A DNA stretch of 30,099 bases from Candidatus Latescibacterota bacterium. Its GTDB lineage: Bacteria; Latescibacterota; UBA2968. A program made the translations under genes and the position numbers. Below are positions 48 to 28,218 of the stretch, piece by piece. Positions within the stretch are counted from its first letter, which is position 1. Every line of letters begins with the position of its first letter. Below the pieces are notes generated by a model, which worked only from the letters and a program-made list of their open reading frames with translations, was not told the origin of the DNA and did not search any database. The stretch spans positions 1 through 30,099 of the forward strand of contig JAYODI010000044.1 of assembly GCA_038279365.1 (NCBI GenBank), read 5' to 3'.

Positions 48-1031
48 ATGAACCCAGACCACATCCTCAAAGTTCGCAATCTAAAAAAATACTTCCCCAT
101 CCAAAAAGGTCTGTTGCGCCGTATTGTGGGGCATGTCAAATCCGTCGATGGTGTAGACTTTGATGTGGAACGCGGTGAAACATTGGGTTTGGCAGGTGAA
201 AGCGGTTGTGGCAAAACCACCACCATTCGCACCATATTGCGTGCCCATCCTCCCACAGATGGCCAAGTCACTTACAACAATGGTGGGCAAAACATCGACT
301 TGTTTGCCCTCTCAAATGAAGAACTCAAACCGCTTCGCGCCGAATTGCAATATGTCTTCCAAGATCCATTCGGCTCTCTCGACCCCCGAATGACCGTACG
401 CGACATCGTGGCCGAACCCCTCCAAATTCACAACCTGGCCACGGGCCGCGAACTCAGCGAACGGGTGGCCGATCTCATGCAACGCGTGGGCTTAAACCCA
501 GCCCACCTCAATCGCTACCCCCACGCCTTTAGTGGTGGACAGCGTCAGCGCATTGGCATTGCACGTGCCCTTGCACTGCGCCCCAAACTTATCATGCTCG
601 ACGAACCCGTGTCCGCACTCGATGTATCCGTGCGTGCCCAAGTGCTCAACCTCCTCATGGATTTGCAAGAAGAGTTTGAGCTCACGTATATCATCGTTGC
701 ACACGACTTGGCCATTCTCGAACGCATTTGTGATCGCATTGCCGTGATGTTTCTCGGCCACATCATGGAATTGACCGACAGCCATACCCTTTTTGCAAAC
801 CCCTTACACCCCTACACCAAAGCCCTGCTATCGGCCATTCCCATTCCCAACCCACGAATCCAAAACAAACGAGAAATTCTGCAAGGTGATGTGCCCGACC
901 CTGCCGACTCACCTGAAGGATGTAAATTTTGCAGCCGTTGCCCATTGGCAGAGTCGCGCTGTTTTAGCGAAGAACCCGCTTTAAGAGAAGTCCAACCCAA
1001 GCATTTTGTGCGGTGTCACTTGGTCACATGA
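48..1031 (+). CDS. oppF: Dipeptide/oligopeptide ABC transporter ATP-binding subunit (OppF/DppF type)
   Basis: Walker A GESGCGKTT, Q-loop FQDPFGSLDPR, signature FSGGQRQR, Walker B MLDEP, and a C-terminal HPYT motif with a Cys cluster (GCKFCSRC...C...C). The rest of the opp operon is presumably upstream of the window. Confidence 0.93.
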   Translation: MNPDHILKVRNLKKYFPIQKGLLRRIVGHVKSVDGVDFDVERGETLGLAGESGCGKTTTIRTILRAHPPTDGQVTYNNGGQNIDLFALSNEELKPLRAELQYVFQDPFGSLDPRMTVRDIVAEPLQIHNLATGRELSERVADLMQRVGLNPAHLNRYPHAFSGGQRQRIGIARALALRPKLIMLDEPVSALDVSVRAQVLNLLMDLQEEFELTYIIVAHDLAILERICDRIAVMFLGHIMELTDSHTLFANPLHPYTKALLSAIPIPNPRIQNKREILQGDVPDPADSPEGCKFCSRCPLAESRCFSEEPALREVQPKHFVRCHLVT

Positions 1032-2047
1032 TCCATCAAATCCAAATCTTATGGCCGACTCTTGTACCCAACCATTCTCAAATAGATGTCATCCAACCCA
1101 TCTCCGAATCGCGTTTCCATACCGTATGGAAAATAACCACTTCCGATCAAAGTCACTTTGTACTTAAACACCATCTTTTTGCCCATCTCACCAAAGACAA
1201 ACCTTATGACCTTATTGCCGTAGAAAACGACGTAACAACCCTTCTGCTCAAAGAAAATGCATCGGTTTCCCCAATCATCGCAACTTATCCAGAGCACGGG
1301 TTCACCATATACAAATGGTGCGGAGAAGATACTTTAGACGACCATTGCCAACACCACGCCACAGCCCCGATCACAAACAAAGTCATAGATACCCTTCTAA
1401 CTTTAGAGAACAGTTTTCAAAAACATACCCACACACTCCAATCGCGCATTGCACCTGGTAGCAACAGAGAAGATGTTCAAAACGCGTTTTCAGAAACCCT
1501 AAGTTCTCTCACCGATGTTTTACCCAATCTCATTTATACCCTAACGCAACAATCTCCACCCAATATATTTGCACACTGGCAACACATCTGCCAGCAGATA
1601 CAAGATATGCCGTTCACACTTGGCCCGACCGACTACAATGCGCGTAACATCGTATTGTCTGCCCATCACATTCCCTACATACTCGAATTATCCAAAATAG
1701 GATATGACTGGCCAGAACGCCGATTGATACAATACACCACCAGTTTAGGGGCTCATCTTTCAACAGGCCGTATCATTGGATTGATTACACCACAAAGTGC
1801 CTCCAGATATGCACAGAAATCGGCAACATACCGCTCTCAGTCTTCCGACCAAATCCTCACCAACCTCGATATACACCATCTTATTTTTTATCTGCTCGCA
1901 GCCCTACAATGTCTACAAGCAAGTACCCAGCCCCATCATCCTTGGAAAAATATAGATACCCGTTTAAACAATATTCAAACGGCCCTGTCCATACCGCTTT
2001 CACAAACACCATCAACTCTTTTTTTTCGCCATCTGTTTCAACCTTAA
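1028..2047 (+). CDS. Aminoglycoside-phosphotransferase/choline-kinase-like fold protein with atypical motifs
   Basis: Long ORF; ATG 1028 overlaps the oppF stop (ATGA), so it is preferred over 1013. Has a VLK lysine, a catalytic-loop-like TDYNARN, and ILELSK at the DFG-like position. Family call is by motif recognition only. Confidence 0.6.
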   Translation: MIHQIQILWPTLVPNHSQIDVIQPISESRFHTVWKITTSDQSHFVLKHHLFAHLTKDKPYDLIAVENDVTTLLLKENASVSPIIATYPEHGFTIYKWCGEDTLDDHCQHHATAPITNKVIDTLLTLENSFQKHTHTLQSRIAPGSNREDVQNAFSETLSSLTDVLPNLIYTLTQQSPPNIFAHWQHICQQIQDMPFTLGPTDYNARNIVLSAHHIPYILELSKIGYDWPERRLIQYTTSLGAHLSTGRIIGLITPQSASRYAQKSATYRSQSSDQILTNLDIHHLIFYLLAALQCLQASTQPHHPWKNIDTRLNNIQTALSIPLSQTPSTLFFRHLFQP

Positions 2048-2060
2048 AAATCCCCAAAAT

Positions 2061-2101
2061 AAAAAAAGGAACCAGCGGTCGGGAGTGCTGGTTCCTTTTT
2101 T
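2061..2101. terminator. Bidirectional intrinsic terminator
   Basis: A7-GGAACCAGC-loop-GCTGGTTCC-T6; can end both the + strand operon and the minus-strand candidate sRNA. Confidence 0.88.
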
Positions 2102-2242
2102 AATAGGGCGGGTCAAATAACCATCTTGCTTGTATAACATCAACCACGCCGTTTAAAAGGAGGGAAGCCCAGCAGTCGGGGTGCTGAGCTCCCTCACAAG
2201 GGCGACGGGTCGGGGCCGTCGCCTAATAATTGTTGATATGTC
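2061..2242 (-). ncRNA. Candidate sigma54-dependent small RNA with three CCCGAC-loop hairpins
   Basis: Sigma54 box at 2253-2269 (-) predicts +1 near 2242. Stems at 2201-2223, 2160-2195 and 2068-2095 have loops CCCCGAC, CCCCGAC and ACUCCCGACC. The last stem is followed by U7. U.G pairs form only on the minus strand. Confidence 0.7.
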
Positions 2243-2252
2243 TTTATACTTT

Positions 2253-2269
2253 TGCAAAGTGTATGCCAA
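2253..2269 (-). promoter_or_regulatory. Sigma54 (-24/-12) promoter
   Basis: Minus strand reads TTGGCATACACTTTGCA: GG-N10-GC with TGGCA and TTGCA boxes, close to the TGGCAC-N5-TTGC consensus. Confidence 0.78.
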
Positions 2270-26553: not shown

Positions 26554-28218
26554 TTACGACAACCCTATCTTTTTACCAATTTCTTCTAAAATATTGTGTA
26601 ATTCTTCAATCACAATAGGTTTAGAAATATAAGCATCCATGCCCGCTTGCAAACACCGTTGCCGATCTTCCGTCATTGCATGGGCAGTTAATGCAACAAT
26701 AGGCATGTGTCGTCCTGTTCTACGCTCATCACGCCGAATGGCCAACGTGGTTTCCAAGCCATCCAATTCGGGCATTTGCACATCCATCAAGATCGCATCA
26801 AACGATTTAAGTAACAAAATGTCCAAAACTTTTTTGCCCGTATCTACAACCGTCACGACATGGCCTTCTTTTTCTAATAAACGCACAGCCAAACGCTGAT
26901 TAACCGGGTTGTCTTCGGCCAAAAGCAAATTCATAGACTGCGAGGTGAATGTTGCATTCTTTTTTCGACTTGGCAATGTGTCCTTGTGATATTTTTCAAG
27001 GGTCAGTGAAAAACGAAACGTGCTGCCTTTTCCTTCTACACTTTCGACACCAAGCGTCCCCCCCATCATTTCAACCAACCGAGACGTAATGGCCAACCCC
27101 AATCCCGTTCCGCCATATTGTCGTGTATGCGACGTATCGGCTTGAGAAAATGCCTCAAAAATGACCGCCTGTTTATCTTCGGGAATGCCAATGCCCGTAT
27201 CGGTCACAGACGTGATTATAACTACCGTGTTGCCCCCTTCACTCATTTGCTCAAACACCACATCCACTTGACCTGTTTCCGTAAATTTAATGGCATTGCC
27301 AACCAAGTTAAATAAGATCTGTTGTAAACGGGCAGGATCACCCACCAACAAGTCGGGCACATCATCGGCCATCTGGTGGCGCAGTTGTAGGCCTTTCTCT
27401 CGTGCGCGCAACCCCAGAGAGCTCAGTGTGCCACTAACCGCTTCTTGCAAGCTAAAAGGAATTTGCTCAATCTCCAGTTTACCCGCTTCAATTTTCGAAA
27501 AATCAAGCACATCATTCACCACACGCATCAGCAAATCGCCCGACGATTGGAGCAAATCAATATACTCTTGCTGCTCATCGCTTAGCACCGTGTGGCCAAG
27601 CAATTGGGCCATGCCCAACATGCCATTAATGGGCGTACGAATTTCATGGCTCATATTGGCCAAAAATTCACTTTTGGCGCGGTTAGCAGCTTGGGCATCT
27701 TCCAGTGCCAAACGCAAGGCTTCGGTGCGTTCAGCAACACGCCGCTCCAATTCATCGTGGGCTTGTTGCAAGGCATCAGATGCCTTTTTTTGTTCCGTAA
27801 TATCTTCAGAAAACCCCACAGATCGATAATGCACACCGTTCTCATCACGCAATCCCAATATCCGACTACGAATCCAGCGCAAATCACCATTGGGTCGCAT
27901 GATGCGATATTCAAAGGTCACTTGTTTTTTAGATTGCCCCAAGCTGGTGGCTATCTGCATCACCGTGCGTCGATCTGCTTTATAAATAGACTGAAACCAT
28001 GAAACGGGCGCCGCATAGAGCGACTCACGGGTGCGCCCCCAAATGGTTTCATATGCAGGGCTCACATACAAGAACTGTTGCAAATCTGGGCTGGCCATAA
28101 AAAATGCTTCGCCCATGTTATCGACAATTTGTCGAAAACGCAGCTCCATTTCTTCATCGCCCAAGTTCAAGGCTTTTGCCACGCGCAAGGCGTCGTCTAT
28201 GTTTTGTTTATCTGGCAT
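26554..28218 (-). CDS. Cytoplasmic hybrid sensor histidine kinase (PAS-HisKA-HATPase-REC)
   Basis: PAS/PAC ([11 protein letters not shown]...DITEQK), H-box [11 protein letters not shown]-box [11 protein letters not shown] boxes DTGIGI and GGTGLGL, receiver AEDN...MDVQMP...SKP. No TM segment seen. Confidence 0.93.

Follow-up and report, generated by a model that had tools for sequence, protein, structure and literature searches.

The stretch of DNA analysed here, hereafter the window, comprises 30,099 nucleotides of Candidatus Latescibacterota bacterium (contig JAYODI010000044.1 of assembly GCA_038279365.1), and its minus strand very likely carries a real and previously undescribed regulatory small RNA (sRNA) gene of an uncultured estuarine bacterium. 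The predicted RNA of ~181 nt, which extends from 2242 to about 2061, follows a sigma54-type promoter and folds into a string of hairpins that display one CCCGAC motif in their loops. Judged by comparison with its relatives, the element is conserved, selected as RNA and undescribed as far as Rfam and literature searches reach; the promoter class and the architecture are well supported, and nitrogen control is plausible. We interpret it, with a probability of about one half, as an independent sigma54 sRNA gene that is probably nitrogen-responsive and acts in trans, with redundant loop seeds that would work by pairing.

A sigma54-type promoter precedes hairpins with a common loop motif

We examined the minus strand of the window from 2269 to 2058, together with the 6.03-Mb assembly to which it belongs (genome G000). 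All sequence strings quoted in a first-pass annotation, which had been made from the letters of the window alone and had proposed the sRNA, are found on this strand where they had been placed (Table 1). The box TGGCATACACTTTGCA is of the TGGCAC-N5-TTGCW type, with its GG and GC 10 nt apart, and is conserved in the homologues; the sigma54 consensus is quoted in the main text of PMC4253122. Hairpin 1 begins ~37 nt beyond the box. By the usual rule for the position of a sigma54 transcription start relative to the -12 element, the start falls where the annotation had predicted it. As also annotated, no credible coding sequence lies downstream of the promoter, and the next gene (1013-2047) is on the plus strand and converges on the RNA.

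The minimum free energy (MFE) fold of the minus strand from 2242 to 2058 (-72.4 kcal/mol) contains exactly the three motif-bearing hairpins of the annotation plus a fourth hairpin that lacks the motif (2150-2107). This fold has a z value of -6.87, and 0 of 200 shuffled sequences fold equally well. The loop of the third hairpin, the terminator, reads UCCCGAC within a 10-nt loop, so that CCCGAC is the motif common to all three, as had been claimed. The annotation had also proposed a helix between AUAUCAAC and GUUGAUGU that encloses hairpins 1 and 2. This helix is absent from the MFE fold of the window, where forcing it gives -68.2 kcal/mol and costs only ~4 kcal/mol; the MFE fold of the relative G052 contains a helix at the equivalent position.

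The array is unique in its genome. Neither blastn nor a scan for CCCGAC hairpins detects a second copy or a paralogue in G000, where the DNA is single-copy, and in the whole genome only the sRNA locus groups two or more CCCGAC-loop hairpins (stem of at least 6). The heptamer CCCCGAC itself is not enriched (544 seen, 507 expected). A REP-like (repetitive extragenic palindromic) dispersed repeat, against which the annotation had set its own proposal, is excluded by the single blastn copy and by the lack of any other CCCGAC hairpin cluster.

Table 1. Features of the sRNA locus in the window.
Feature	Sequence	Position	Strand	Remark
sigma54-type box region	TTGGCATACACTTTGCA	2269-2253	minus	string read directly
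sigma54-type promoter	TGGCATACACTTTGCA = TGGCAT-ACACT-TTGCA	2253..2268	minus	-24 GG, -12 GC
predicted +1		near 2242	minus	-12 GC at 2255/2254
hairpin 1	GGCGACGG-CCCCGAC-CCGTCGCC	2201..2223	minus	8-bp stem, 7-nt loop 2215-2209
hairpin 2	GAGGGAGCTCAGCA-CCCCGAC-TGCTGGGCTTCCCTC	2160..2195	minus	14-bp stem, one bulge, 7-nt loop 2181-2175
spacer hairpin, motif-less		2107..2150	minus	from the fold
terminator hairpin	GGAACCAGC-ACTCCCGACC-GCTGGTTCC + T-run	2095-2061	minus	string read directly
terminator hairpin with flanks	GGAACCAGC/GCUGGUUCC, loop ACUCCCGACC	2061..2101	minus	A-run and U7 run either side
conserved upstream block, candidate activator-binding site	TGGCGCAGATGCGCCA, 6 nt, GGTGCAAATGTTTCAA	2374..2411	minus	105-143 nt upstream of the -24 box

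Relatives occur within one order and retain the loops on changing stems

Nine distinct members of the family were identified, all from one order: seven in genomes (G000, G003, G005, G007, G042, G051 and G052) and two in metagenomes (M252 and M294). A blastn search with the hairpin region over 61 related genomes matched pieces of it in G052, G003 and G007, each of which has a sigma54 box at equal distance; G052 and G003 carry CCCCGAC loops on stems of differing sequence, and in G007 five of the six hairpins have CCCCGAC loops. Two pattern scans extended the search; both demand exact loops and miss diverged members. The first, over one genome per prokaryote species, returned 97 stretches, three of them real (G052, G003 and G005); the other 94 are chance matches in GC-rich coding DNA of unrelated phyla and were discarded. 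The second, over metagenomes with a promoter-free pattern of hairpin 1, returned at least 120 stretches, and three are real among the matches listed: one identical to G051, M252, which is close to the window, and the new member M294. Both M252 and M294 carry a perfect sigma54 box, though they were found by the hairpin pattern alone. All five members found without the promoter in the query (G052, G003, G007, M252 and M294) have TGGCAY-N5-TTG at the same distance.

A covariance model of the promoter and hairpins 1 and 2 (model R1) finds a match in 7 of the order's 53 genomes, which represent 7 of its 11 genera and both families. There is no match in any of the 21 genomes of genus g5, the 15 of genus g7 or 102 genomes sampled from elsewhere in the phylum. 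Two genomes of the window's own genus, G001 and G002, also lack an R1 match; their assemblies are 88-90% complete, so that absence is not established, and the locus is rearranged in G001. The stretch itself occurs in DNA runs of 12 studies, which are estuary, marine or marsh metagenomes, one of them possibly the source.

The nine members contain 27 CCCGAC hairpins, 22 of them with exactly CCCCGAC, and 2-5 motif hairpins each; every member folds with the motifs in loops of 7 nt or slightly larger. To characterize the stems, we aligned the promoter and hairpins 1 and 2 of the nine members. In this alignment 89.4% of the cells are paired, compared with 42-59% when the partners are slid, and compensatory change on both sides is found in 14 of 22 pairs. 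The covariation score is reached by 0 of 500 shuffles, a count that is not a probability since the sequences are related; the slid controls retain this relatedness yet fall far below. Hairpin 1 is paired to 98.6% across the nine members, with 3 of 8 pairs compensatory, and in hairpin 2 the figure is 11 of 14. The relatives thus bear out what the annotation expected of them, namely covarying stems and invariant loops. G.U pairs outnumber A.C juxtapositions on the promoter strand by 24 to 8 across the members, which fits this strand as the RNA strand and agrees with the annotation's choice of the minus strand.

Seen as DNA, every hairpin forms a palindrome around a fixed 7-bp centre, and the plus strand folds well too (z = -4.26), as it would if the inverted repeats were operators or recombination sites that act at the DNA level without a functional RNA. 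However, the arms change while they stay complementary, which is the opposite of what a protein-read operator does; read from the opposite strand, the 24 G.U pairs would turn into C.A mismatches; and the repeats are bracketed by a promoter and a U-run. We consider this explanation very improbable.

The number of motif hairpins differs at defined positions. Where the window has its spacer hairpin, M252 has a spacer hairpin followed by an extra, fourth motif hairpin (GGCUG-CCCGAC-CAGCC), of which the window retains only a decayed remnant. A terminator that bears the motif is also present in M252, G007, G042, G052 and M294.

The promoter travels with an upstream block in a genome rich in sigma54 functions

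The TGGCA and TTG columns of the promoter are invariant in 9 of 9 members. Further upstream, a block of ~40 bp at -145 to -105 from the box aligns in 7 of 7 genome members despite differing upstream genes, and also at loci that lack P-II and glnE, which indicates that block, promoter and RNA travel as one unit. Within this block, GGGTGCA is exact at -121/-122 in G000, G042 and G052.

The annotation had proposed looking for rpoN and for enhancer-binding activators, and both are encoded in G000. rpoN is a 532-aa open frame with a PF04552 match of 204.6 bits, and of 30 matches to PF00158, 26 are full-length (E below 1e-60). The pattern TGGCAY-N5-TTGCW occurs at 45 sites of the genome, of which 32 lie in the 12% of the DNA that is non-coding. 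This genomic evidence indicates that sigma54 is in active use in this bacterium. Nine sigma54 boxes have no close downstream gene, and no CCCGAC hairpins follow them. Four intergenic boxes, C18:20812(-), C52:32617(-), C104:56570(+) and C17:63490(-), have no open reading frame of at least 100 aa within 240 to 8200 nt downstream and likewise no CCCGAC hairpins; these four may drive other non-coding RNAs.

In our model, sigma54-RNA polymerase would transcribe the ~181-nt RNA once an activator bound 105-145 nt upstream switches on, and the inducing signal would most likely be nitrogen status, sensed by an NtrBC-like pair. A candidate pair, with an ntrB-like kinase and an ntrC-like sigma54 activator, is encoded on contig C193 of the same genome (about 24220-31211, locus L300). 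The two genes are followed by a sigma54 promoter (TGGCATTCATGTTGCT at 26856) and then by genes for a PtsN-like IIA protein, a sigma70-family protein and an unassigned 181-aa protein, and by a type I glnA. In NCBIfam the ntrC-like gene scores best against AtoC and NtrC, in both cases below the cut-off. The two best GTGCAAA-N-TTTGCAC palindromes of the whole genome lie 100 and 133 nt upstream of the C193 promoter, and the upstream block of the sRNA holds a weaker copy at -120, with 3 mismatches in 14. This likeness may link the block to the ntrC-like locus and is suggestive only. Of 10 genomes examined, 9 also have a palindrome of the TGCAAnnnnTGCA type ahead of the PtsN-like gene.

The RNA lies near genes of nitrogen regulation in several members

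The RNA is directly downstream of glnE, which encodes the glutamine synthetase adenylyltransferase, on the same strand and 100-300 nt after its stop codon in G007, G052, G005 and M294. Two genes separate glnE from the RNA in G003, so that the RNA is downstream of glnE in 5 of 9 members. In G007 and G052 glnE in turn follows a P-II gene, and in G051 the RNA directly follows a P-II gene. The P-II gene is flanked on its other side by a divergently oriented operon with cupin, AIR-synthase-like, HAD and Lar_N-like genes. No sigma54 box was found in front of P-II.

We also read the surroundings of glnE across the order. The gene is present in 30 of 53 genomes; all 21 of genus g5 have it, and none of the 15 of g7 does. 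Eleven glnE loci were read from genomes that lack a model match there, and no diverged RNA was found downstream. G000 and two congeners are without glnE, although G000 has a type I glnA and two P-II genes. At a locus just downstream of glnE in G035 (L307), the block CTGGCTGAGATGCGCCA ... GATGCAAATGTGACA persists, but neither the sigma54 box nor the hairpins remain, as if the RNA gene had been deleted recently.

The position of the RNA would also be explained if it were a cis-acting element, that is, a leader, an attenuator, a 3' extension of a neighbouring gene or a terminator stack between convergent genes. The RNA comes right after glnE in 4 of 9 members, no clear terminator follows hairpin 2 in G003 and G051, and the next gene of M252 (H-NOX) lies on the same strand. 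The last hairpin resembles a two-way terminator: the sub-threshold Rfam matches on the plus strand sit on it, so that it is terminator-like in both directions, and it probably also ends the convergent gene 1013-2047. On the other side, the element has its own sigma54 box in every member and its upstream block in every genome member, and it is retained where glnE has been lost. The downstream genes vary and are convergent in G000, G052, G005 and M294, and ordinary terminators do not keep an invariant loop. A cis-acting role is therefore unlikely, in our judgement, and an independent sRNA gene is preferred.

The element is a new family with the design of known nitrogen-related RNAs

Cmscan of the whole window against Rfam 15 (4227 models) gives no match at gathering thresholds, an outcome that the annotation had named as support for novelty. 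In E-value mode only terminator-like or junk matches appear; the best is Thr_leader, which scores 22.8 bits on the plus-strand terminator hairpin (gathering score 55). A full-text literature search for the motif returned no relevant work among the results listed, and a search for small RNAs in Latescibacteria found nothing on the subject.

The closest likeness is one of architecture, not of membership. NrsZ of Pseudomonas has a sigma54/NtrC promoter and 1-6 modules with identical loops, for which a kissing complex is proposed (PMC4253122, whose main text is the source for the NrsZ homologue structures compared here). According to that text, the two RNAs share a sigma54 promoter, a nearby nitrogen-regulation gene, repeated hairpins with identical loops, motif-less spacer hairpins and a variable copy number (1-6 modules in NrsZ, 2-5 here). 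They differ in the loop, which is CCCCGAC here and ACAGGCAG in NrsZ, and in phylum, and they have no sequence or Rfam relationship. NrsZ lies between ntrC and the next gene, whereas the neighbours here are P-II and glnE or the cupin operon, and the ntrC-like gene of G000 is on another contig (C193). NtrC dependence and processing into single hairpins are features of NrsZ; for the present RNA, control by an NtrC-like activator is a prediction.

NfeR1 offers a second parallel. In the part of PMC10746234 used here, it is described as an RNA with three hairpins, identical loop motifs, variable stems and redundant seeds that responds to nitrogen stress, activated by LsrB and repressed by NtrC, and wired into NtrBC; for the window's RNA, the corresponding nitrogen link is one that we infer. 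NfeR1 and the other alpha-r14 'cuckoo' sRNAs of alpha-proteobacteria likewise hold the same ultraconserved C-rich motif unpaired in several hairpins with differing stems. Their motif, however, is the anti-Shine-Dalgarno sequence CCUCCUCCC, directed against ribosome-binding sites, while CCCCGAC is not complementary to the AGGAG sites of this genome. The part of PMC10746234 used here mentions no sigma54 promoter for NfeR1, in contrast to the box found here.

A sigma54 -24/-12 promoter with an upstream activator site (a candidate site in our case) that drives a non-coding RNA is also known from Qrr, CrcZ and GlmY, and CrcZ is mentioned as such an RNA in the main text of PMC4253122. None of these RNAs was matched in Rfam or has sequence or structure similarity to the element. 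Two further likenesses were considered and dropped: an ANTAR-type dual hexaloop, which has a different loop pattern, and mimicry of a tRNA anticodon or of a codon, which amounts to numerology only.

The element represents a new family within a known kind of RNA, with the design of NrsZ and NfeR1 and no sequence relationship to either, and it is suitable for submission to Rfam. Since NrsZ belongs to gamma-proteobacteria and NfeR1 to alpha-proteobacteria, RNAs with repeated identical-loop hairpins seem to have arisen several times in nitrogen-control circuits. No regulatory RNA has so far been described for Latescibacterota, as far as our literature searches reach. With its promoter and upstream block, a candidate activator of the ntrBC-like type and two leaders that may be targets, the family offers a handle on sigma54 and nitrogen signalling in this uncultured group.

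The loops may act as seeds for pairing

We propose that the string of 2 to 5 hairpins in each species would present identical single-stranded CCCCGAC heptaloops, which as redundant seeds would initiate base pairing, either loop-loop or loop-strand, with GUCGGGG-type sites in a few mRNA leaders. This pairing would alter the translation or stability of those mRNAs. Heptaloops closed by G-C-rich stems have the classical geometry of kissing complexes, which we count against a protein-binding role. Pairing is favoured over such a role mainly because NrsZ is proposed, and NfeR1 has been shown, to act by pairing, according to the parts of PMC4253122 and PMC10746234 used here.

Two leaders emerged as candidate targets. 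Of 4718 leader duplexes, the best involves a site in which 13-14 nt are perfectly complementary to the hairpin-2 apex; this site lies 24 nt ahead of a gene for a CheY-like receiver (C17, ATG at 133722). The duplex has an energy of -30.9 kcal/mol, compared with -26.3 for the next best and a mean of -12.5 (sd 3.8). The site itself lies in a small hairpin (GGCA-GUCGGGG-UGCC), and its GUCGGGG core is kept in the G001 orthologue. The second candidate is the ptsN-like gene of C193 (start at 27051), where (G)UCGGGGG(G) lies over the ribosome-binding site in G000, G001, G007 and G052. Both leaders are best taken as leads, not findings.

The same loops could instead bind and titrate an RNA-binding protein or another structured ligand. 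CsrB, RsmY and RsmZ are multi-hairpin sponge RNAs of this kind, which repeat a GGA loop motif and have CsrA/RsmA as their partner. The RNA described here also repeats one short loop motif over several hairpins, but it has no GGA in the loops and fewer repeats; no partner protein was found, no search for a CsrA gene having been made. Invariance of only 6-7 loop nucleotides, while loop context and stems drift and the copy number ranges from 2 to 5, is what a titrating RNA would exhibit. CCCCGAC is not an anti-Shine-Dalgarno sequence, and no conserved or enriched complementary mRNA sites were found, either in genome-wide counts of start regions or in the orthologues of the candidate leaders. Nevertheless, the nine loci share no gene for an RNA-binding protein next to the RNA and no candidate protein was found, two to five sites are few for titration, and the RNAs of the same architecture, NrsZ (as proposed in the main text of PMC4253122) and NfeR1 (as shown in the part of PMC10746234 used here), act by pairing. 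Titration is a possible but doubtful explanation; if true, it would make the element a second, unrelated CsrB-like titration system, nitrogen-switched, in a phylum without genetics.

Observations that bear against nitrogen control and pairing

The reading of the element as a nitrogen-responsive RNA that acts by pairing has to be weighed against the following. The nitrogen link is suggested by gene neighbourhood, and this neighbourhood is not constant: in the window, M252 and G042 the cupin operon abuts the RNA directly and P-II and glnE are missing, and G000 lacks glnE by tblastn and by search, yet has kept the RNA. Conversely, all 21 genomes of genus g5 have glnE and none has the RNA by model R1, and eight loci read there have no RNA downstream of glnE. 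The palindrome near the ntrC-like locus was noticed partly through its likeness to the sRNA block, so that the comparison of the two is not independent. In one RNA run, the assembled contigs, with 5% of the sampled words, cover only 2622-2700, which is the start of the cupin gene and lies outside the sRNA.

The searches for targets were largely negative. Of the checks that the annotation had proposed and that were run here, all turned out in its favour except one, the enrichment of the motif or its complement in 5' untranslated regions: GUCGGG(G) is not enriched near start codons of G000, the histogram of its positions is flat, and no more than 18 GTCGGGG sites are found within 100 nt of a start codon. 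GTCGGGG is intergenic at 42 of 544 sites, compared with 12% non-coding DNA, and TCGGGG precedes starts 112 times, within the range of the control words (36-468). The ribosome-binding sites of the genome are of the AGGAG type (AGGA/GGAG), which indicates that the loops are not general anti-Shine-Dalgarno seeds. No GTCGGGG-type sites are found inside the sRNA loci themselves. Exact or one-mismatch complements of the hairpin-2 apex, counted in nine genomes, are overall no commoner than the reversed control and do not lie at orthologous genes.

The two leads are subject to similar reservations. The CheY-like site is degenerate in G002 and absent from the orthologue of G005, although G005 has the RNA, and chance alone would produce an exact 13-mer ~0.2 times per genome. 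G005 and G051, which bear the RNA, lack the ptsN-like site, as do G002, G010 and G033, and the duplex at this site ranks 168th of 4718. In G000 the glnA and amtB leaders have no site, nor do the P-II and ntrB-like leaders, and the duplex ranks of the nitrogen gene leaders are unremarkable.

Additional features of the locus and the genome

In 6 of 9 members the arms of hairpin 2, which in the window have GAGGGAG on the 5' side and a 3' side that ends in CCCUCC, resemble a Shine-Dalgarno sequence (GAGGGAG, GGGAGGA) paired with an anti-Shine-Dalgarno-like CCCUCC or CUCCUCC, and they are not followed by a start codon. A protein of 343-378 aa without a Pfam family is encoded convergently to the RNA in 4 of 9 members (window 1013-2047 (+), L116:7555-8586, L117:2123-3259 and L294:826-1875). 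Elsewhere in G000, at C138:2696-2720 (locus L344), the space between two genes of the same orientation contains a small hairpin, AAUGGGUG-UCGGGG-CACCUGUU, with a loop complementary to CCCCGA; it is located 26 nt ahead of the start of a DHDPS-family gene. In the window, the plus-strand change T>C is present at both 2086 and 2118 in two DNA runs that come from different studies, each with a depth below 5 and in one contig; the variant at 2086, an A to G change in the RNA, lengthens the terminator stem by one G-C pair.

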